Source of the DNA: Polyangiales bacterium
GTDB lineage: Bacteria > Myxococcota_A > Polyangia > Polyangiales > Ga0077539
Reading direction: 5' to 3'
Assembly (NCBI GenBank): GCA_044229975.1
Contig: JBGARZ010000013.1
Span: forward strand, 96,001 to 160,000
Length of the DNA stretch: 64,000 nucleotides
The position numbers were made by a program, and so were the translations under genes. The notes under the pieces were generated by a model that was not told the origin of the DNA, searched no databases, and saw nothing but the letters and a program-made list of their open reading frames with translations. This document shows positions 17,841 through 42,472 of the stretch, one piece after another (position 1 is the first letter of the stretch; each line of letters opens with the position of its first letter).

Positions 17841-19322
17841 CTACGAGGTGCGGCGGGTGCGCTTCTTCGCGGCGACACGCACGCGCGTGGTGGGGGCGTT
17901 CTTCCAGAGGCGCTCGTAGGCGCGGAAGGTCTCTGCCGGTCGACGGAGCGGATGGCTCACACGGTAGAGCTCATCGAAGATCACGTCGGCGACGAGAGCG
18001 GGCTCGGCGTTCCAGAGGCGAGCGCGGCCGAAGGTCAGCGCGATGGGACCCATGTCGCCCCGAAGCACCAGGAGCAGGTCAGAGGCCCAGCATTCGAGGC
18101 CCAGGAGATAGGCGCTCTCGGGGTCGTCGACGTCGACGCGGCGGAAGACGCACGCGGACGGCACGTACTCGAACACATGCCGGCGCGCCCCGTCGCGGAG
18201 CGCAAACGCAAAGGTCGGCCGGCGCCCCTCGGACTCGCCCGCCATCATGGAATAGAGGTACCGAAAAAGCGGACCGCCCACCAGCGCGCAGGCGAGCTCA
18301 TGGAGTCCTTCTTCGATGCGCCGGAGGTCACCGCGGCCGAGCGCAGGTGCTCCGCTCGCGGGTGCAAAATCCGGGAGCGGGCCGAGGTGGGCTGGCTCGC
18401 GCGAAGGCCAGACGTCGCGCGGCTCGGTCGCGAGAAAGTCGGTCGACGCGTCGACGCGCACGAGCCGATGGCCCTCCATCCAGAACGTCTGCCCAGGGAG
18501 TGTGGAGACGAACTTCTCGCGCGGATGGGCGCGCTCGAGCAATGCGCAGGCGCGATCGCAGTCGATGGGAAACACGCGCCGATTGAGCCACGCCCGCTCG
18601 CCGTAGAACGAGAACCCGCCCGCGCACAGCAGCGTCGCGGCGGGCCGTCCCCACGTCGCGCGAACGAGCTCGCGACCGACCCCCATCCGCGCCGCGCACG
18701 CCTCCGTGCTGCCGCTCATCTCGTCGACGAAGTCGGTCATGTGACTCCAGTCGAGGGCGTTGTTGGTCCAGGTGACCAGCCCCGGCTTCGCGAGCACGCC
18801 CTTGGCGAGGAGGAGGTGACGCTCGGTCGGTGTGATGTCGACCATCGAGAAGAAACTCCCGGCGCCGCCCGCGTCGCGCACGAGCAGCGGGAGCGTGTCC
18901 CATTCGTCGCCGCAGTCGACGTTCACGTGATCTCCGGCCAGCGGGATGACCTCCAGATCGTCGAAGGTGACGGGCACCCCAGGCTCGAGCGGCACCACCC
19001 GGAACCCCATCTCGCGAAGGATGCGGTGCGCGGCGCTCGACGAGCGGGCGGACAGATGGACGGGGATCTTGCGGCTCAGCCGGGCGAGGGACGGAATGTC
19101 GAAATGGTCGTCGTGCTCGTGCGTGAGCACCACCGCATCCAGCGCGGGGAAGCGTGCGAGGTCGAGCCGCCGGGGCGGAAACACCCGGTACTCGAGCGCA
19201 TGCTGCGCGCCGAAGTGCTCGCACAGCAGCGGGTCGACCGCGACGCACGCGCGATCGGAGCGAAAGAGCCAACCCTGATGACCGAGAAACGTGACGGCGA
19301 ACACGGGCGCGCATGGTGCCAC
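17841..19322 (-). CDS. MBL-fold metallo-hydrolase/oxygenase-like protein
   Basis: VTFLGHQGW, VDPLL, LTHEHDDHFD motif; start uncertain (GTG at 19322 or 19304). Confidence 0.7.
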   Translation of the reverse strand: MAPCAPVFAVTFLGHQGWLFRSDRACVAVDPLLCEHFGAQHALEYRVFPPRRLDLARFPALDAVVLTHEHDDHFDIPSLARLSRKIPVHLSARSSSAAHRILREMGFRVVPLEPGVPVTFDDLEVIPLAGDHVNVDCGDEWDTLPLLVRDAGGAGSFFSMVDITPTERHLLLAKGVLAKPGLVTWTNNALDWSHMTDFVDEMSGSTEACAARMGVGRELVRATWGRPAATLLCAGGFSFYGERAWLNRRVFPIDCDRACALLERAHPREKFVSTLPGQTFWMEGHRLVRVDASTDFLATEPRDVWPSREPAHLGPLPDFAPASGAPALGRGDLRRIEEGLHELACALVGGPLFRYLYSMMAGESEGRRPTFAFALRDGARRHVFEYVPSACVFRRVDVDDPESAYLLGLECWASDLLLVLRGDMGPIALTFGRARLWNAEPALVADVIFDELYRVSHPLRRPAETFRAYERLWKNAPTTRVRVAAKKRTRRTS

Positions 19323-19389
19323 GAACCGTCGCGCGCGGTTCGAGGGGAGTGCCTTCACCTCGATGGGCTCCTTGGTAATTTCACGTCCT

Positions 19390-19869
19390 GTGAGCCTGAA
19401 CCTCAAGACCGAGACCGAGCGTGTGGTCGACGTCCTCCAGCGAGCCGAGGTCGACTTTGCGATCTGCGGCGGCATCGCGGTCACGATGCATGGCGCGCCC
19501 CGGTTCACCCGCCACATCGACCTGTTGATTCGTGCGGAGGACGAGCCGCGAGCCATCGTCGCCGTCGCGCGAGCGGGCTTCGACCTCCCCGCCGATCCGA
19601 TGGTGTTCGATGCAAGCGGCCCCCTCGAAGGTCGCATCCTTCGGGTCTCCAAGGCGGAGGGCTCCGACCTCCTCACGCTCGCCCTCATCGTCGCGTCGCC
19701 CAGCTTCGAGGACGTGTGGAGCACGCGGGTGTTGGTCGAGTGGGAAGGTCGAAGGGTTCCGGTCGTGTCGGTCGAAGGACTGATCCCGATGAAGCGCGTC
19801 GCGGGTCGCCCGCAGGACCTCGTCGACATCGACAACCTGTCCGCACTGACCGCGACACCGGAGGAGTGA
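19390..19869 (+). CDS. Minimal nucleotidyltransferase (DUF6036/AbiEii-like)
   Basis: CGGIAVTMHGAPRFTRHIDLL; C-terminal LIPMKRVAGRPQDLVDI. Confidence 0.8.
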   Translation: MSLNLKTETERVVDVLQRAEVDFAICGGIAVTMHGAPRFTRHIDLLIRAEDEPRAIVAVARAGFDLPADPMVFDASGPLEGRILRVSKAEGSDLLTLALIVASPSFEDVWSTRVLVEWEGRRVPVVSVEGLIPMKRVAGRPQDLVDIDNLSALTATPEE

Positions 19870-19871
19870 CC

Positions 19872-20045
19872 ATGGCATCGCGCACCGTCGACATGTCCCC
19901 GGCGGCGATCTCGCGACGCCTCGAAGAGCTCGCCCAGCTCTACGAGATGGCCCGCTCGCTCAAGCGCGCACGGGTGATCGGTCCGCTGCGGTCGGCCGTC
20001 GCGGAGGCCGCTCCTGCGCTCGCAGCGGAGGACGAGACGACGTGA
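19872..20045 (+). CDS. 57-aa helical protein, putative partner of the nucleotidyltransferase
   Basis: GGAGGAG RBS; MASRTVDMSPAAISRRLEELAQLYEMARSLKRAR; begins 2 nt after the NTase stop. Confidence 0.6.
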   Translation: MASRTVDMSPAAISRRLEELAQLYEMARSLKRARVIGPLRSAVAEAAPALAAEDETT

Positions 20046-20235
20046 CCGCGGACGCCCAGACTGCGAAGTTCACCCGCAAGCGGGCGACCTCGAGCTCATG
20101 CTCATAGGAGATCCAACGGGGGAGGCTTGCGAGCACAGATCCACCGGAGGTTACAGATCGCCCAGACCGCGAAGTGCCCCTCTCCGTGACGTGCGGCGGG
20201 AGCTCTACGCGCAGTCGTTGGAGAGCTCGCTGGCG

Positions 20236-20502
20236 CTGGAGGTAGGGAAGCTGCTGCTCGACGCCGAGCCAGTCGCCGCCCTGGTAGCGGCCGAGCGAGC
20301 TGCGGTCGACGCGCACGTCGTTGCCCGTGTCGCCGTTGGCGAAGCGGTCGACCAGGAGCTGGTAGATGACCTCGTCGCGCCAGTCGTCGACGTGGGTCGC
20401 GAGCGGCTGCTACGTGTAGTCGTCGAGGTCGCCGAGGCACGACGTCCCGCGGAGCAGCGCGCCGATCATTCCCACCGTCGCGAAGAGTCCTCGGCGCCTC
20501 AC
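20236..20502 (-). pseudogene. Truncated GH13 alpha-amylase lipoprotein pseudogene
   Basis: MRRRGLFATVGMIGALLRGTSCLGDLDDYT*QPLATHVDDWRDEVIYQLLVDRFANGD...RYQGGDWLGVEQQLPYLQ; in-frame TAG at 20412-20410; similarity ends near 20236. Confidence 0.8.
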
Positions 20503-20551
20503 GCCGTCGAACGCAACCCGCGGGGGGAGAGCGGGGGAAGCATCGACGCGC

Positions 20552-20965
20552 TCAGCGAACCGCGGCCCCGTAGCGCTCGACGATCTCCTGCGCGAGGCGA
20601 CGCAGCAGCGCGCCGCCTCCGGTGTTCAGGTGCAGCTCCAGTCCGGGGATGAGCACCACGCGCTCCCACGCCTCTCCCGCGAAGGTCGCGACGGGCGGCG
20701 CGGTGGTCGCGGGGACGACCGGCGCGGGGACCTCGGCCGCCAGCCGCTGACGGATCTTCCCGAGCGAGAGGTGTTGATCGCGCAGCTTCACGATGGCCAG
20801 GAGGCGTTCGCGGTGCCCCGCCGGGTAGCGTGTCGCCGGGCCGCGTCGCTCGGGCGGGGCGATGACGCCCGCGTGCGTCCACCGGCGCAGGGTGCGGCGA
20901 GAGACGCCGGTCCCCTTCACCAGCTCATCGAAGCTCAGCGTCGGCGGCGGGACAGCGGCGGTCAT
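20552..20965 (-). CDS. MerR-family HTH protein with short C-terminal WERVVLIPGLELHL domain
   Basis: LSFDELVKGTGVSRRTLRRWTHAGVIAPPERRGPATRY...LSLGKIRQRL. Confidence 0.85.
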   Translation of the reverse strand: MTAAVPPPTLSFDELVKGTGVSRRTLRRWTHAGVIAPPERRGPATRYPAGHRERLLAIVKLRDQHLSLGKIRQRLAAEVPAPVVPATTAPPVATFAGEAWERVVLIPGLELHLNTGGGALLRRLAQEIVERYGAAVR

Positions 20966-20984
20966 CGGGCGATGTCACCCGGAG

Positions 20985-21210
20985 GGGGCAATCGAGGTCA
21001 ACCCTTGAGATTGCGAGGCCAAGGGAGAGCCTATCAAGGACAACCATGCGGCTAGCGACGTCGTTCGGAAGCCTATTTAGGACAAGCACAACGATCGCAC
21101 CGTCGCTTTCGAGGCTATTCAGGTCACCAAGCAGGATACCGAAGGTACAAATGGAGCCCATCCAGGTCACACATGGCCTTCCGGTGGACATTCTCGAAGC
21201 AATCGAGGTC
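20985..21210 (-). repeat. Regularly interspaced array: six degenerate ~16-nt repeats, 42-43 nt period, unique spacers
   Basis: Minus-strand consensus TGWCCTNRATDGSCTC; plus-strand AGG cores at 20995, 21037, 21079, 21121, 21164, 21206; 120/220 GC over 20991-21210; strand inferred from G.U pairing. Confidence 0.8.
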
Positions 21211-22900: not shown

Positions 22901-23021
22901 CGGACGTCCCGCCCGCTCTCTCTTCGCTTCGTCGCCGATGAGGGCGTGTCGTTGACGCCTACGCCCACTCCCAACTGGCGTGTCGCCGCCGCCGGGTGCA
23001 TCGTCCCCGTCGCCGCCCGCG

Positions 23022-24995
23022 ATGCCTGACGCTGCCGCAGATCTCGCCGTCCTCGCCGTCGCCGCCCGCCGCGTCCGCTGGCAACGCGCCCTGCACACCG
23101 CCGCGGCCCTCAGCCCCGTCGCGCTCACCGCCTCCGTCGCGCTGGTGCTGCTCACCCGCCTCCGCGTGCTCCACCTCGCGCACCCGGTCGCCATCGCCCT
23201 CGCGCCCGCCGCGCTTCCGCTGGTCGGCGCGCTCGTCCACGCGCTCCTCCGGGTGTCTCCGCTCGACGCCGCGCGGCGGCTCGACGCCCACCATCAGCTC
23301 CACGATCGCCTCGGCATCGCGTGGCAGTTTCGCCAGCAGCCCACCGACTCGCGAACGCCCTTCATGCAGGCCGCCATCGACGACGCCGTCACGCACGCTC
23401 GCGGCGTCGACGTCCGGGCCGCGCTCCCGTGGCGCGTCCCCGGTGAGCTGAGTGTGGTCGCCGCGCTCGTGGTGCTGCTGGTGCTCGTCGCGCGGGTCCC
23501 CGTCCCCTCACGAACGCCACCGCGAGCCGCGCGCCCTGCTCCGACGACCTTCGCGCGAGACGCGGCCGAGCTCCACGACGACGACCTCGCCGCCTTCCGC
23601 GAGGCCGCGCGTCAGCTCGAAGCGCAGGCCCGCACCGACGACGCACGGCGCGGCGTCGAGCAGTTCAACCGGCTCCTCGACGACCTCGCGCATCGGCGAC
23701 TCGACCGCGACGAGGCCTTCCGTCGCCTCGCCGCGTTGCAGGAGTCGCTCACCGCGCAGGACGCCGCGGCGGGGCAACGGGTGACCGAGGCGCTGCGCAC
23801 GCTCGGCGACGAGATGAACCCCCGTGACGCCGCCACGCGACGGCTCACCGAGGCGCTGCGACGAGGCGACGCGGGCGCGGCCTCCGAGGCGATGCGCGAG
23901 CTCGCGCAGTCCGCGCGCGAGGGGACCATGACCCCGCAGCAGCGGCAGCAGACGGCGCAGGCGCTCCAGCGGGCGGCCGAGGCGCAGCCCGACACCGAGG
24001 CGCTGCGACGGCAGGTCGAGCAGGCGCGGCGCGAGGTGGAGGAGATGCTCCGTCAGCAGCGGGAGCGCGCGCTCAACCAGCAGGAGGAGTCGCTGCTGCG
24101 ACGGCGACAGCGCGAGGCCGAGCGGCTCACGGGCGAGCAGCAGCGCCGGGAAGAACAACGGCGCGAGGCCGAGCACCTGCAACGCGAGCTCAACCAGGCG
24201 GCGCAGGACCTCGCGCGCGACCTGCAGCAGGCAGGCGTCGACCTCCAGCGCGGCGCCGAGGAACTCTCACGGATGCACGACGAGCAGCAGTCGCAGCGCT
24301 CGACCGAGGAGCTTCGCCAGCAGCTCGAACAGCTCCGCGAGCTGATGCGCCAGCAGCGCGGTCAGGGCGGGCAGCAGCAGCGCATGCGGCTCCAACAGTT
24401 TTCGCGCAACGCCGGCGGCCAACGCGGGCAACAGGGACGCGGGCAGCAGGGACAGGGACAGGCGGGACAAGGGCAACCGCAGCCCGGGCAGGGTCAGTCG
24501 GGGCAGCCCGGGCAACAGGGACAGGGAGTCGGAGAAGGGCAGGGCCAGCCGGGAGCGGGGCAGCCTGGGCAACAGGGCAACGGTCCGCCGCAGGGCCTGG
24601 CCCTCGGTGCGGGCGGGAGCGGCGGTGTCGCGCTGCCAGTACCAAGTGCGGGTGGCAACCAACCGGGAGGCAGCCAACCCGGCGGCGAGGGTCGCGACCC
24701 CGGTGGGCAGGGCGCGGGTGCACAGCACGACGAGAACCTCCGCGGCGCGGCCATCGACCCGCTGTCACGCACGCAGGCGGTGCAGGTGCAGGGGCAGCAG
24801 ACGGGCAACGGGCCGTCGCGCTCGCAGGTGATTCGCACGGCGGCGGGGTCGGGCTTCGCGAGCCGTCCATACCAGCAGGTGTATTCGCCGTACTGGGATC
24901 GGGCGCGCGAGGTGTTGCACCAGGGCGAGGTTCCGCCGGGGTTTCGGTCTTATGTAAGAAGGTATTTCCAGCTCATCCGACCGAGGGAGGAATGA
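23022..24995 (+). CDS. Membrane-anchored coiled-coil Gln/Gly-rich protein (DUF4175-like), MoxR operon member
   Basis: N-terminal TMs, LHDRL motif, long Q/E-rich coil, QG low-complexity tract, C-terminal VPPGFRSYVRRYF. Confidence 0.7.
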   Translation: MPDAAADLAVLAVAARRVRWQRALHTAAALSPVALTASVALVLLTRLRVLHLAHPVAIALAPAALPLVGALVHALLRVSPLDAARRLDAHHQLHDRLGIAWQFRQQPTDSRTPFMQAAIDDAVTHARGVDVRAALPWRVPGELSVVAALVVLLVLVARVPVPSRTPPRAARPAPTTFARDAAELHDDDLAAFREAARQLEAQARTDDARRGVEQFNRLLDDLAHRRLDRDEAFRRLAALQESLTAQDAAAGQRVTEALRTLGDEMNPRDAATRRLTEALRRGDAGAASEAMRELAQSAREGTMTPQQRQQTAQALQRAAEAQPDTEALRRQVEQARREVEEMLRQQRERALNQQEESLLRRRQREAERLTGEQQRREEQRREAEHLQRELNQAAQDLARDLQQAGVDLQRGAEELSRMHDEQQSQRSTEELRQQLEQLRELMRQQRGQGGQQQRMRLQQFSRNAGGQRGQQGRGQQGQGQAGQGQPQPGQGQSGQPGQQGQGVGEGQGQPGAGQPGQQGNGPPQGLALGAGGSGGVALPVPSAGGNQPGGSQPGGEGRDPGGQGAGAQHDENLRGAAIDPLSRTQAVQVQGQQTGNGPSRSQVIRTAAGSGFASRPYQQVYSPYWDRAREVLHQGEVPPGFRSYVRRYFQLIRPREE

Positions 24996-26006
24996 ATGGC
25001 GTCGAAGGCTGAGGGGACCGCGGCTCCGAAGGAGTCCGTCGAGCGCTTCCGGAAGGACCTCGCGGCGGTGCGGTTGGAGGTGGGCCGCGTGATCGTCGGG
25101 CACCAGTCCGTCGTTGATGGCGTGCTCACGTGCCTGCTCGCGGGCGGTCACGCGCTGCTGGAGGGCGTCCCCGGCCTGGGCAAGACGATGCTCGTCCGAA
25201 CGCTCGGCCGCGCGCTCGACCTACAGTTTGCGCGAGTGCAGTTCACGCCCGACCTGATGCCCTCGGACATCCTCGGCACGCAGATGATCGCGGAGGACGA
25301 GAAGGGCGCCAAGCGCTTCGAGTTTCAGCGCGGGCCCATCTTCGCCAACCTCGTGCTCGCCGACGAGATCAACCGCGCGACCCCGAAGACCCAGAGCGCG
25401 CTGCTCGAAGCGATGCAGGAGCAGTCGGTCACCATCGCGCGCAAGACCCACGCGCTCGACCAGCCCTTCTTCGTGCTCGCCACGCAAAACCCGCTGGAGA
25501 TGGAGGGCACCTACCCGCTACCCGAGGCGCAGCTCGATCGCTTCTTCTTCAAGCTCAACGTGCCGTTTCCCAAGCGCGACGACCTGCACGCCATCCTCGA
25601 TCGCACGACGGGTGGCGACGAAGCCGCCGTGAAGCCCGTGCTCGACCGCGCGCGCATCCTGGAGCTGCGGGCGCTCACCAGGGAGGTTCCGGTCGCGCGC
25701 TCGGTGCAGGACTACGCCATTCGCCTGGTGCTCGCGACGCACCCCGATCAGGAGGGCGCGACGGCGTCGGTGAAGCGCTACGTCCGCTTCGGCGCGTCGC
25801 CGCGTGGGGCGCAGGCGATACTCCTGGCGGCGAAGATTCGCGCGGTGATGGACGGCCGCTTCAGCGCGAGCGCCGACGACGTGAAGGCGAGCGCGCCGCC
25901 GGCACTGCGACACCGGATGATCCTGAACTTCGAGGGCGAGGCCGAGGGTGTGCGTCCCGATGCGGTGCTCGAAGAGATCCTCGGGTCGGTGAAGCCGGGG
26001 GCATAA
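24996..26006 (+). CDS. moxR: MoxR-family AAA+ ATPase
   Basis: LLEGVPGLGKT, QFTPDLMPSD, LADEINRATPKTQSALLEAM, EGTYPLPEAQLDRF. Confidence 0.95.
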   Translation: MASKAEGTAAPKESVERFRKDLAAVRLEVGRVIVGHQSVVDGVLTCLLAGGHALLEGVPGLGKTMLVRTLGRALDLQFARVQFTPDLMPSDILGTQMIAEDEKGAKRFEFQRGPIFANLVLADEINRATPKTQSALLEAMQEQSVTIARKTHALDQPFFVLATQNPLEMEGTYPLPEAQLDRFFFKLNVPFPKRDDLHAILDRTTGGDEAAVKPVLDRARILELRALTREVPVARSVQDYAIRLVLATHPDQEGATASVKRYVRFGASPRGAQAILLAAKIRAVMDGRFSASADDVKASAPPALRHRMILNFEGEAEGVRPDAVLEEILGSVKPGA

Positions 26007-26009
26007 CGC

Positions 26010-26936
26010 GTGGGCTGGCTCGACTGGCTGCGCGCGCCGAAGACCGTCGCGGTGACGGAGGACGAGCTCTTCGACGCCGACTTCCAACGGCGTCTGGAGT
26101 ACCTCGCGGTGGCGTCGCGGCGGCTCTTCGCGGGTCGCATCAAGGCCGAGCGCCGCACGCGCATCGCGGGCAGCGGCATCGAGTTCGCGGACCATCGGGC
26201 GTACACGCCGGGCGACGACCTGCGCGCGCTCGACTGGAGCGTCTACGGCCGCACCGAACGCCTTCTGGTGAAGCGCTTCGAGGAGGAGGAAGACCTCACC
26301 ATCGCCATCGTCCTCGACGTGTCGGGATCCATGGCCTTCGGCGATCGGGCGCGCTTCGACCACGCGCGGAGATTGGCGGCAGCGATGGCCTACGTGGCGC
26401 TGTCCAATCTCGATCGGGTGGCGATGGTGGCGGTGTCGACGAAGATCGAGCGGCGCATGGCCCCGGCGCGCGGCAAGGGACAGATCTTCAAGGTGTTCGA
26501 GTTTCTGCGGGGGTTGAAGCCGGGCGGGGAGACGGCGCTCGCCGAAGCGGGTCGCACGCTGGGTGCGGAGCTGAAGCGCCGCGGCGTGGCCATCGTGGTG
26601 AGCGACCTCTACGACCCGGCGGGCTTCGAGCGCGGGCTCAACGCGCTGCGGTACCAGAAGTTCGAGCCGATGGTGATCCACGTGACCGACGCGCGGGACG
26701 CCGACCCGGGCGCGCGCGGCGACGTGCTGCTGGTCGACGCGGAGTCGGGCGAAGGCCGCGAGGTGACGCTGACGCCCGCGCTGGTGGCGAAGTTTCGCGA
26801 CGCGCACGCGCAGTGGGGACGCGAGGTAGAGGGCTTCTGCAAGGCGCGTCGCGTGGCCTACGCGCGGGCTGAAGTGGGCGGAGCGCTCGAAGACCAGGTG
26901 CTGAATCTGTTCCGCCGATCGGGGCTGGTGGAGTGA
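26010..26936 (+). CDS. DUF58 domain protein
   Basis: GSGIEFADHRAYTPGDDLRALDW; DVSGSM. Confidence 0.92.
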   Translation: MGWLDWLRAPKTVAVTEDELFDADFQRRLEYLAVASRRLFAGRIKAERRTRIAGSGIEFADHRAYTPGDDLRALDWSVYGRTERLLVKRFEEEEDLTIAIVLDVSGSMAFGDRARFDHARRLAAAMAYVALSNLDRVAMVAVSTKIERRMAPARGKGQIFKVFEFLRGLKPGGETALAEAGRTLGAELKRRGVAIVVSDLYDPAGFERGLNALRYQKFEPMVIHVTDARDADPGARGDVLLVDAESGEGREVTLTPALVAKFRDAHAQWGREVEGFCKARRVAYARAEVGGALEDQVLNLFRRSGLVE

Positions 26937-28828
26937 TGGAGTGGCTGGGCCTCGCGCCGTCGCAGCTCGCGTGGGCGGGCGCGCTCGCGGGCCTCGCGGT
27001 GGTGGCGCTGTACCTCCTCAAGCAGCGTCGTCGGCGGGTGCTGGTTCCCTTCGCGCCGCTGTGGACGCGCGTCATCGAGGAGCGCCCGAGCGCGAAGCTC
27101 TTCGAGCGTCTGCGTCGGCTGCTCTCGCTCCTCCTGCAACTGGTGCTGCTGGCGCTGCTGGTGGTGGCGCTGGGTGATCCGCGGCCCGCGGGGGCGTCGC
27201 GGCGCGGGCGCACGACGGTGCTGCTGCTCGATGCGAGCGCGAGCCTGTCGGCGACGGACGTCCCCGGGGGGAGGGCGACGGCGGCGCGCGAGGCGGCGCG
27301 GCGCATCGTTCGCGCGATGGGCCCCGACGACCGGATGCTGGTGGCCCAGATGGACGCCGAGGTGACGGCGCTCACGCCCGTGACCGACGACCTCGCGGCG
27401 CTGGAGGCGGCGGTGTCGTCGTACCGGCCGCGCGACACGGGCGTCGACCTCCCGCGGGCGCTCCGCTTCGCGCGCGACGTGCTGCGTGGAGATGCCCACG
27501 GCGAGGTGATCGTGGTGGGCGACGGGGCGTACCCCGCGATGGCGGGAGAGAGCCCGCTGGGCGCGCTGCCGCTGCGCTTCGTGGGCGTCGGTCGTCGCGG
27601 GCGCAACCTCGGGCTGACGGCGTTTTCGGCGCGGCGCTATCCGCTCGATCGGTCGCGCTGCGAGGCGATGGTCGAGCTCCAGAGCTGGAGCGATCGGGCC
27701 GAGTCGGTGGTGCTGACGGTGAGCGTCGACGGCGCGCCCATCGAGCGCGCTCGCTTGCGGGTGGCGCCGGGCGAGCGCGTGCAGCGGGTCATCGAGCGGC
27801 TGTCGGGCGGCGGCGAACGCCTGGAAGCGCGCATCACCCTGGAGGACGGGACGCGCGACGACCTCCCGGTGGACGACGTGGCCTACGCGACGCTGCCGGA
27901 GAGACGGCGCGCGCGGGTGTTGTCGGTGGGCAACGGCAACCGCTACCTGGAGGCGGCGCTGCTGCTCGACGAGTACCTGGAGGTGGTCGACGCGACGTCC
28001 GAGCGGGCGGGCGCGGCGCTGGCGCAGGGTCACTTCGACGTGGTCATCAGCGATGGGGTCGCGGTGGAGGTTCCGCCGGGGGTGGGCTGGATCTCGCTGC
28101 GACCGCCCGAAGGAGGCTCGCCGCGACCGGTGGAGGCGGGCTTCGCGACGGCGCCCGCGGGGGGAGCGCTGGGCTTCGAGCGGGTCGATCGGAGGCACCC
28201 GGTGACGCGCTTCACCAGCGACCTCGAAGAGGCCCACATCGGTCGCATCGCGCGCTACCGCCTCGACGCGCGCGACCGGGTGCTGGGCGCGAGCGCGGCG
28301 GGTCCGCTGCTGGTGGCGGGCGAGCGGGAGGGGGCGCGCTTCGTGATGTTCACGTTTGATGTGCGCGAGAGCGACGTGCCGCTGCTGGTGTCGTGGCCGG
28401 TGCTGCTCATCAACGCGATCGACTGGTTTTCCGGGGAAGACGGAGCGTTTCAGTCGTCGTACCGGACGGGCACGGCGTGGCGGATGCCGGTTCCTGCGGG
28501 TGAGTCGGAGGCGACGGTGGAGACGCCGTCGGGGCGGCGCGTGCGGGTGCCAGTGGTGGAGGGGCGCGCGGTGTTCTTCGGGACGGAGGCGGGCTTCCAT
28601 CGGCTGCACGCGGGTGAGTCGCACACGCTGGTCGCGGGCAACCTGATGGACCCGGACGAGTCCGCGTGCGCGCCGCGGGCGACGCTGGCGGTGGGCACGA
28701 CGCGCGCGACGGCGCCGCTGCCGGGGAGGCCGGGGTTGCGGCGCGAGTGGTGGGCGGCGCTGCTGGCGGTGGCGGCGCTCATCGTGGTGGCCGAGTGGGC
28801 CACGTGGCATCGACGGGTGACGGTGTAG
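26933..28828 (+). CDS. BatA-domain / vWA membrane protein
   Basis: N-terminal LYLLK...LLLQL BatA motif; DASAS MIDAS; C-terminal TM ending in EW. Confidence 0.85.
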   Translation: MMEWLGLAPSQLAWAGALAGLAVVALYLLKQRRRRVLVPFAPLWTRVIEERPSAKLFERLRRLLSLLLQLVLLALLVVALGDPRPAGASRRGRTTVLLLDASASLSATDVPGGRATAAREAARRIVRAMGPDDRMLVAQMDAEVTALTPVTDDLAALEAAVSSYRPRDTGVDLPRALRFARDVLRGDAHGEVIVVGDGAYPAMAGESPLGALPLRFVGVGRRGRNLGLTAFSARRYPLDRSRCEAMVELQSWSDRAESVVLTVSVDGAPIERARLRVAPGERVQRVIERLSGGGERLEARITLEDGTRDDLPVDDVAYATLPERRRARVLSVGNGNRYLEAALLLDEYLEVVDATSERAGAALAQGHFDVVISDGVAVEVPPGVGWISLRPPEGGSPRPVEAGFATAPAGGALGFERVDRRHPVTRFTSDLEEAHIGRIARYRLDARDRVLGASAAGPLLVAGEREGARFVMFTFDVRESDVPLLVSWPVLLINAIDWFSGEDGAFQSSYRTGTAWRMPVPAGESEATVETPSGRRVRVPVVEGRAVFFGTEAGFHRLHAGESHTLVAGNLMDPDESACAPRATLAVGTTRATAPLPGRPGLRREWWAALLAVAALIVVAEWATWHRRVTV

Positions 28829-41445: not shown

Positions 41446-42132
41446 TCAGACCGATGCAGCGGGTCGGCGGGTGTCCGGCGCCGTGAGGTGCGGAACCGCC
41501 GCGGTGTACTCGGCGGCGCGCCCCATCATCAGGAGGACGCCTTCGAGGATGAGCGCGGCGCCGCGGTAGGTGCGCAGCCACGCGCGCTTCTCCGAGGACT
41601 GCTCCGAGAGGGTGACGAGTCGCGCGCGCTCGGCCTCGTCGCCGCGGGTGACGAGCGGTTCGAGCGTCGCGAGCTGGGCGTCGAGGCGCGCGATCCAGCG
41701 GGTGTGATCGGGCACCGACGGCTCGTGCGCGAGGTGTTCGCGGGCGACGAGCGTGGCGTCGCGGAGGTTGCGGGCCCCCTTGCCGATGCCCGTCAGGCCG
41801 TGGGGGAGGAAGAGGTGGGGGTCGCCGTTCCAGGGGTCGTGGGCGTCGGACTTGCGGGCGGCGAGGTGCAGGGCGAACGACCGGAGCTCGCCGCGCGCGG
41901 CCTTCACCACGGGCAGCTTCTCCTCGGCGGTGGCGCCGCGCTCCGACTGGGCGCCACGACTCGCCGCCATCGCCCCGCGCATGGTGAGCGTCGCGGCGTC
42001 GAGCCGATCAGCGCACCACCCGAGCATGGCGATGACGGGCGGTGGGGCGTCGACGCCGACGATGCGCCGGAGGTTGCCGCTGAAGCGGTCGCCGTAGGTC
42101 TGGGTCTCCTGGTTGTCGATGTAGCTGTCCAT
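41446..42132 (-). CDS. Hypothetical all-alpha protein (228 aa)
   Basis: GGAGG RBS before ATG at 42132; amphipathic helices; FLPHGL turn motif. Confidence 0.65.
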   Translation of the reverse strand: MDSYIDNQETQTYGDRFSGNLRRIVGVDAPPPVIAMLGWCADRLDAATLTMRGAMAASRGAQSERGATAEEKLPVVKAARGELRSFALHLAARKSDAHDPWNGDPHLFLPHGLTGIGKGARNLRDATLVAREHLAHEPSVPDHTRWIARLDAQLATLEPLVTRGDEAERARLVTLSEQSSEKRAWLRTYRGAALILEGVLLMMGRAAEYTAAVPHLTAPDTRRPAASV

Positions 42133-42257: not shown

Positions 42258-42472
42258 TCCGCCCGCTACCACTCGGCCGACGTGGACCAGCGGGAAGGCA
42301 CCCGACCGCCACCACTCGGCCGACGTGGACCAGCGGGAAGACACCCGACCGCGACCGCTCGTCCGACGTGCACCAGCGGGAAGACGCCCGACCGCTACCA
42401 CTCGGCCGACGCGGACCAGCGGGCAGGCACCCGGCCGCTGCCGCTCGCCCGATGCGAACCAGCGGGCAGGCG
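42258..42472. repeat. Tandem repeat, 5 x 43 bp, non-coding
   Basis: ACCAGCGGG at 42286, 42329, 42372, 42415, 42458. Confidence 0.92.

Follow-up and report, generated by a model that had tools for sequence, protein, structure and literature searches.

In a 64,000-nt stretch of a Polyangiales bacterium genome, referred to here as the window, a phased array of 6 short sites lies directly upstream of an orphan MerR-type gene. Judging from sequence comparisons, this array is likely a double-stranded DNA binding platform for the gene's own product, which would bind cooperatively along a single helix face and likely act as a repressor of its own transcription; we place the probability of this reading at roughly 55%. 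A sequence-only reading of the same DNA had offered 2 alternatives, an array processed into ~42-nt RNAs acting with the MerR-like protein or a set of binding sites phased on the helix, and the second is the better supported one. The locus does not constitute evidence for a new RNA-guided system.

The array and the adjacent MerR-type gene

The features of the locus are given below in window coordinates, with main-site offsets counted from the MerR ATG at 20965.

20100..20235, no strand assigned: dispersed ~130-bp repeat, candidate IS end, with one copy situated 108 bp past an IS91-family transposase gene
20232..20544, minus strand: 5' fragment left of a broken alpha-amylase-family gene (93% identity to an intact gene)
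20552..20965, minus strand: 137-aa orphan MerR-type gene; its paralog on contig C20 is 91% identical
20558..20668, minus strand: conserved C-terminal beta-hairpin and helix (residues 100-136), without a Pfam family or clear fold match
20732..20941, minus strand: MerR winged helix-turn-helix (approximately residues 9-78), recognition helix SRRTLRRW; Pfam MerR_1, E 9e-12
20966..20981, minus strand: short inverted repeat that ends at the ATG and overlaps the last secondary site
20985..21210, minus strand: phased array of six main sites spaced by 42 or 43 nt, plus degenerate secondary sites near +21; the paralog shares the register
21196..21210, minus strand: main site 1 (start 21210, offset -245)
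21154..21168, minus strand: main site 2 (start 21168, offset -203)
21111..21125, minus strand: main site 3 (start 21125, offset -160)
21069..21083, minus strand: main site 4 (start 21083, offset -118)
21027..21041, minus strand: main site 5 (start 21041, offset -76)
20985..20999, minus strand: main site 6 (start 20999, offset -34), with its G at 34 nt 5' of the ATG, the operator-dyad slot of VIT-operon relatives
20996..21001, minus strand: TTGACC, candidate -35 element of a putative leaderless promoter

The six 15-bp repeats at intervals of 42, 43, 42, 42, and 42 nt described in the sequence-only reading were confirmed at these coordinates, and the periodicity score of the array (36 vs a shuffle mean of 2.8) was reached by 0 of 300 dinucleotide shuffles. 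The first and last repeats indeed have GACCTCGATTGC in common, and the composition reported earlier, about 55% GC and far below the surroundings, also held, with 55.5% in the array vs 74% in the MerR gene and 73% upstream. The main-site consensus, GACCTCGATAGGCTC, is a near-dyad with the core CCT-N4-AGG, and CCT and AT are invariant over all 12 units of the window array and the array of the C20 paralog, which likewise has six repeats in the window's register (-245, -203, -161, -118, -76, and -33). Most of these units contain a degenerate secondary GACC site at approximately +21 (G21 in 9, C23 in 9, and C24 in 8 of the 12), and the spacers therefore carry no independent cargo. The 5 spacers had been described as different, and their sequences do differ, but they are not unrelated: between window and paralog, 12-17 of 27 positions are identical at matching positions and 8-16 off-diagonal, as in diverged relatives of one another. 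Spacer conservation between the paralogs is lower than that of fourfold sites in the MerR gene, 20 of 91 of which differ (78% identity). No array variants were identified in short pieces from four DNA sequencing runs. No good -10 element for TTGACC was found at the window locus, where a consensus scan detected no promoter, and the inverted repeat at 20966..20981 was rejected as a terminator, being without a U-tract and not terminator-like.

The earlier description of the protein as a MerR-type HTH with an uncharacterised tail was borne out, and Pfam MerR_1 was identified in 32 of 32 aligned family members. The MerR domain of the predicted structure (pLDDT 77) matched PbrR best (Z 10.3), along with TnrA (Z 9.9) and GlnR (Z 9.6). 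In this model, a low-confidence linker separates the MerR domain from the hairpin and short helix, and the MerR coiled coil is absent; the predicted linker, hairpin, and short helix, with no long coiled-coil dimerisation helix, argue against a classical MerR activator. Searches with a 44-residue model of the tail (pLDDT 88) gave best values of Z 3.6, Foldseek E 3.6, and PDB profile E 0.09. Neither a nuclease nor a Nop domain was found in the protein.

The amylase remnant abutting the MerR gene identifies the window locus as a duplicate that has undergone rearrangement relative to the C20 locus, where the intact alpha-amylase-family gene lies 3.5 kb downstream of the paralog and a 1080-aa gene, absent from the window locus, sits between the two. 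Rolling-circle mobilisation of the window copy is a possibility; lying within a rearranged duplicate, this copy may be decaying. Just past the IS-like end, a nucleotidyltransferase-like ORF (19291-20045, weak AbiEii/DUF6036 matches) lies beside a short ORF, and the two resemble a toxin-antitoxin-type pair. Further, a MoxR AAA+/DUF58/vWA-BatA cluster (22980-28828) is apparently unrelated to the array.

Distribution of arrays in the MerR-type family

A profile search returned 253 clusters for the whole family at E up to 1e-30, and the named relatives belong to Polyangiaceae. From genome and metagenome searches, we compiled 131 non-redundant, full-length loci, and the 124 with at least 250 nt upstream were scored for arrays. 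Arrays were identified upstream of 0 of 53 loci with a downstream VIT/vWA gene vs 45 of the 71 loci without one, 6 of these 71 having downstream DNA too short to classify. Among the non-VIT loci, arrays preceded 44 of 60 genes with an altered recognition helix and 1 of 11 with the canonical helix; 26 of the 71 fell below the array threshold, with several showing 21-, 41-, or 84-nt arrays by eye. Helix diversity runs parallel to array diversity, with 38 different recognition-helix hexamers among the 45 array loci vs 3 among 57 VIT-linked loci. When the first 76 scored loci were placed in a tree, a single branch (support 91/82) separated off all 25 rows with arrays, linking the arrays to one fast-evolving part of the family that stands outside the operon; this result is to be read with long branches, possible attraction, and the non-independence of related loci in mind. 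A third subfamily (L020, L104, and L105) has the helix RTLRFY, no array or VIT match, and a different long ORF downstream.

The VIT-linked relatives share a conserved operator, TGTC-N5-GACA-N7-TGTC over TTGACA, located 31-40 nt 5' of the start in 52 of 56 loci. The conserved MerR plus VIT/vWA operon with its leaderless-type TTGACA promoter is represented by L043 of the host genome (G000:C33:342892-345851) and by 56 relatives. The last site of the window array, TTGACC, occupies the operator slot of this class, and TTGAC in the ancestral slot was found in only 2 of the 45 arrays, those of the window gene and its paralog.

Array sequences are lineage-specific, and 190 of 228 steps measure 42 or 43 nt across unrelated sequences, with a mean step of 42.3 nt, corresponding to 10.6 bp per turn. 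Besides the peak at 42/43, which the array definition selects for, pooled autocorrelation of the 45 arrays had maxima at 21 and 63 but no peak at 10-11. Array period showed no correlation with GC content among these arrays (rho -0.01). Of the periodic motif expected upstream of homologues, the period recurs (45 of 71 non-VIT loci), but the sequence differs by lineage. The proposal of six sites phased at four helical turns is the better supported of the 2 alternatives, although 21 bp is the basic period and 42 bp the putative unit of duplication. No neighbour family recurred in a scan of flanking ORFs that covered 49 of 67, with a family assigned to 21; the other 18 were excluded as likely wrong-frame calls. 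We found no description of the MerR branch, the operator of the MerR-VIT operon, or the arrays in a literature coverage that largely leaves out subscription journals and does not extend to supplements.

These data bear on 2 rival explanations. Arrays might be by-products, that is, local tandem duplications formed as the stand-alone genes are copied into new locations, inherited in cis, decaying, and functionless. Dispersed gene copies (three or four in several genomes, with three in Sorangium So ce1014), the lack of a recurrent neighbour family among the 49 flanking ORFs, the IS91-like end and broken gene beside the window copy, and some family arrays that are recent near-perfect duplications are all consistent with such an origin. 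We nevertheless regard it as quite improbable, as window and paralog have retained both the 15-bp sites and the register while the spacers fall below the fourfold-site identity, and the 42/43-nt step persists despite unrelated sequences. The other explanation, a relic of a 14-residue repeat protein, draws on a gene-strand frame that is open across the window array and on 42 being a multiple of three. It is largely refuted, and we give it hardly any weight: stops interrupt that frame in the paralog, where the 43-nt steps also come at other positions, and 31 of the 45 arrays contain a non-triplet step. The earlier statement that no protein repeat explains the array is accordingly upheld.

Proposed double-stranded sites and RNA-based readings

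A matrix built from the 12 window and paralog sites was run over 126 upstream regions and identified five sites before L118, which was the best non-self match in one of the homologue searches and comes from another family than the window. All five are reversed, with gaps of 64, 42, 22, and 63 nt that follow a 21-bp lattice; in the host genome, any of the other 2213 upstream regions had at most 3 such matches. L056, which also comes from another family and belongs to the sister group of the window gene and its paralog (89/70), shows five reversed sites spaced by multiples of 21, a pattern found in 0 of 200 shuffles, although this test is post hoc because the pattern was refined after L056 had been seen. 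Inversion of the motif at 21-bp multiples in both relatives is as expected of a double-stranded site. Dyads with arms of at least 5 were identified in 7 of 34 array consensuses vs a shuffle mean of 2.2 and maximum of 5, whereas arms of at least 4 were not enriched (13 of 34 vs 9.3, maximum 13). Motif clusters in the host genome occur only at the two MerR loci. A wider regulon was not apparent, with 419 matrix matches outside both arrays forming no clusters and 39 of them non-coding (9% vs approximately 12% of the genome).

Weighing against a cognate site, array similarity did not follow similarity of the recognition helix across 34 divergent loci (r 0.00, P 0.49; Mantel test with a crude k-mer measure), nor was it related to the remaining protein sequence (r 0.05, P 0.24). 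In the same direction, arrays of proteins that differ in the recognition helix have a CCGTCC motif in common.

We consider it very unlikely that a transcript of the array is processed to ~42-nt RNAs which serve the protein as ligands or guides. The repeat-spacer appearance of the array and the rapid divergence of its spacers from those of the paralog would fit such a system. Folding gave some support as well, with the whole 271-nt region reaching z -2.04 on the gene strand (4 of 200 shuffles) vs -0.77 on the other, and the 45 arrays exceeding their shuffles by a small margin on either strand (mean z -1.34 and -1.48). However, with pairing limited to 45 nt, the strand signal in the 271-nt region disappeared (z -0.45 on the gene strand and +0.73 on the other), and the sense strand folded better in 22 of the 45 homologous arrays, which lends no support to the suggestion of an RNA co-oriented with the gene. 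The hairpins named in the sequence-only reading are possible pairings, but taken one at a time the spacers did not exceed their shuffles in folding (z +1.9 to -2.2 for 10 spacers on 2 strands). The hairpins are also not kept in the 91%-identical paralog, where some units lack them and one spacer has no gene-strand fold. The inverted motif in L118 and L056 also speaks against a processed guide array, as does the MerR fold of the protein, a DNA-binding fold with no nuclease or Nop domain. Further, a -10-like TAnnnT lies between array and start at 17 of 45 loci vs 8.5 expected, an excess 3' of the arrays which suggests that many arrays lie upstream of the promoter. The spacers, for which matches had been proposed as a check, gave no significant match in the host genome, in phages (best E 0.8), or in plasmids (none), and no Rfam family covers the window array. 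A two-unit array pattern searched in viral contigs gave 0 matches.

The view that no cas or Nop gene accounts for the array agrees with our genome profile searches and the local neighbours. CRISPR-Cas was rejected, with repeats that are 15 bp long and degenerate, spacers that share a secondary site and match no phage or plasmid, no cas gene at the locus (the window neighbours belong to other families), and the only cas1 of the host genome on another contig. For TIGR-Tas, no PF01798 Nop match was obtained in the 93% complete genome (the control matched in 4 of 14), and box C/D intervals are irregular, with 3 on the gene strand and 7 on the other, in an array of period 42. Type III toxin-antitoxin systems have near-identical repeats with a conserved RNA fold, followed by a terminator and then an RNase toxin; the window array has no Rfam match and no terminator, and its downstream gene encodes a MerR HTH.

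Wider arrays, proposed mechanism, and known systems

The host genome contains 42/43-bp arrays in 38 of 2215 upstream regions, a count in which divergent gene pairs share one array, vs 0-15 for ten control lag pairs, and the lengths of its non-coding tandem repeats have maxima at 21-22 and 41-44 nt. Two of the 38 belong to the MerR genes, and 16, picked by eye, precede uncharacterised orphan ORFs of 189-298 aa forming several small families. These 16 helical orphan genes are unrelated to the MerR gene and share its period, and the motif of the window protein does not account for them. Either the orphan-ORF proteins are DNA binders with private arrays too, or a shared factor sets the period. Under the latter view, the arrays would be a general architecture read by a host factor such as RNA polymerase, a nucleoid protein, or a DNA-wrapping enzyme, with phase and shape mattering more than sequence and MerR genes being one of several orphan classes. 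The genome-wide count, the repeat-length peaks, the orphan ORFs, and the absent helix-motif correlation at the 34 divergent loci all point in this direction. In contrast, only upstream of related proteins is the window motif found again, in phase and inverted, the other 42/43 arrays of the genome have at most 1 window-motif match each, and the period is independent of GC content in the 45 family arrays; we consider this explanation unlikely.

In the preferred reading, in which the array serves the adjacent gene's own product, the protein would dimerise through its C-terminal hairpin-helix tail, and dimers would bind near-dyads cooperatively, spaced two helical turns apart along a single DNA face. 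Bound protein would cover its own -35 element and repress its own promoter. The array would represent an enlarged version of the operator of the operon-linked relatives, grown by 42-bp duplication of a two-site unit, and after release from the operon, helix and array may have diverged together. Counting against this reading are the missing correlation between helix and array, the presence of TTGAC in the ancestral slot in only 2 of 45 arrays, the lack of enrichment of the shorter dyads, the 26 non-VIT loci below the array threshold, the shared period at the 16 unrelated orphan genes, and the possible decay of the window copy. What appeared as one odd repeat becomes a family-wide rule, with a conserved operon regulator having given rise to a stand-alone branch, each member with a different phased array.

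More speculatively, and with doubt outweighing expectation, these genes may form an undescribed class of self-contained modules in which a protein is paired with its own private DNA address. Such stand-alone genes would spread through the chromosome while rapidly re-evolving helix and four-turn-period array, like plasmid incompatibility pairs. On this view, 42-bp arrays at unrelated DUF6261-like genes would point to a general nucleoprotein mechanism, serving as an anchor, a barrier, or an addiction-like system, and protein-DNA pairs of this kind would make up a natural orthogonal library. Were the pairs cognate, they would supply orthogonal repressor-operator parts for immediate use and illustrate how DNA specificity diversifies. 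The MerR-type protein is the most tractable entry to the 42-bp orphan-gene arrays because its DNA-binding fold is recognisable.

TnrA/GlnR, RacA, and pSK1 Par bind palindromic or repeated sites. They have a MerR-type winged helix as in the window protein, with homology confined to the HTH; unlike them, the window locus has no glutamine synthetase, polar anchor, or plasmid context. By analogy, the array may well work like the operator arrays of CarA/CarH or BldC, with the geometry of sopC, while standing outside those families. As described in PMC9304148, CarA/CarH of Myxococcales are MerR-type proteins that act cooperatively on tandem sites of one DNA face, including a TTGACA -35 element, so that the window system is like them in its MerR-type DNA-binding domain, myxobacterial origin, and tandem sites; the same text gives 11-bp repeats over approximately 55 bp and a B12-binding domain. 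The window system differs in its 21/42-bp lattice over 226 bp, unclassified tail, lack of a regulated operon, and lineage-specific sequence. BldC of Streptomyces (PMC5859096) is a small MerR-like protein that has a winged helix but lacks the MerR coiled coil and multimerises on variable-length arrays, features in which the window protein resembles it in part; BldC is HTH-only and has head-to-tail direct repeats and a genome-wide regulon. In contrast, the window system has near-dyad sites, no 10-11-bp period, no regulon seen, and a conserved extra C-terminal domain, and its MerR model matches BldC with Z 3.9 vs Z 9.6-9.9 for TnrA/GlnR. A BldC/CarH-type operator of direct repeats one helical turn apart was rejected, with no 10-11-nt autocorrelation in the 45 arrays.

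The F-plasmid sopC centromere has dyad sites every 43 bp beside the gene of its binder SopB, and differs in its near-identical repeats, ParB binder, and adjacent ParA ATPase (PMC3177203). A partition centromere of the sopC or pSK1 type was rejected, with no plasmid match and no partition family among the 49 of 67 neighbours scanned. TIGR-Tas loci resemble the window locus in having a compact degenerate array beside a small gene (10.64898/2026.09.09.750476; PMC12045711), with 36-nt units that carry box C/D and a Nop-domain protein; unlike them, the window locus yielded neither regular box C/D intervals nor a Nop-domain protein.

Several other repeats were observed in the window and host genome. 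Five 43-bp repeats (87% match) at window positions 42259-42471 lie approximately 130 nt 5' of a 228-aa uncharacterised helical ORF (41446-42132, minus strand), which has a close paralog on contig C20 with its own 43-bp array. This ORF is weakly linked to DUF6261 (32% of a cluster, score 0.90), a label that rests on one Atlas lead because a DUF6261 profile search matched neither the host genome nor the controls. A 43-nt array (L183, G000:C11:441960-442112) is located between the genome's only cas1 and a helical orphan gene, with no cas2-sized gap evident between the two. Further, a REP-like family of GC-rich tandem repeats of 53-55 nt, often in inverted pairs and with up to 18 copies, was identified on host contigs C2, C19, C20, C26, C27, C28, C32, C33, and C39.
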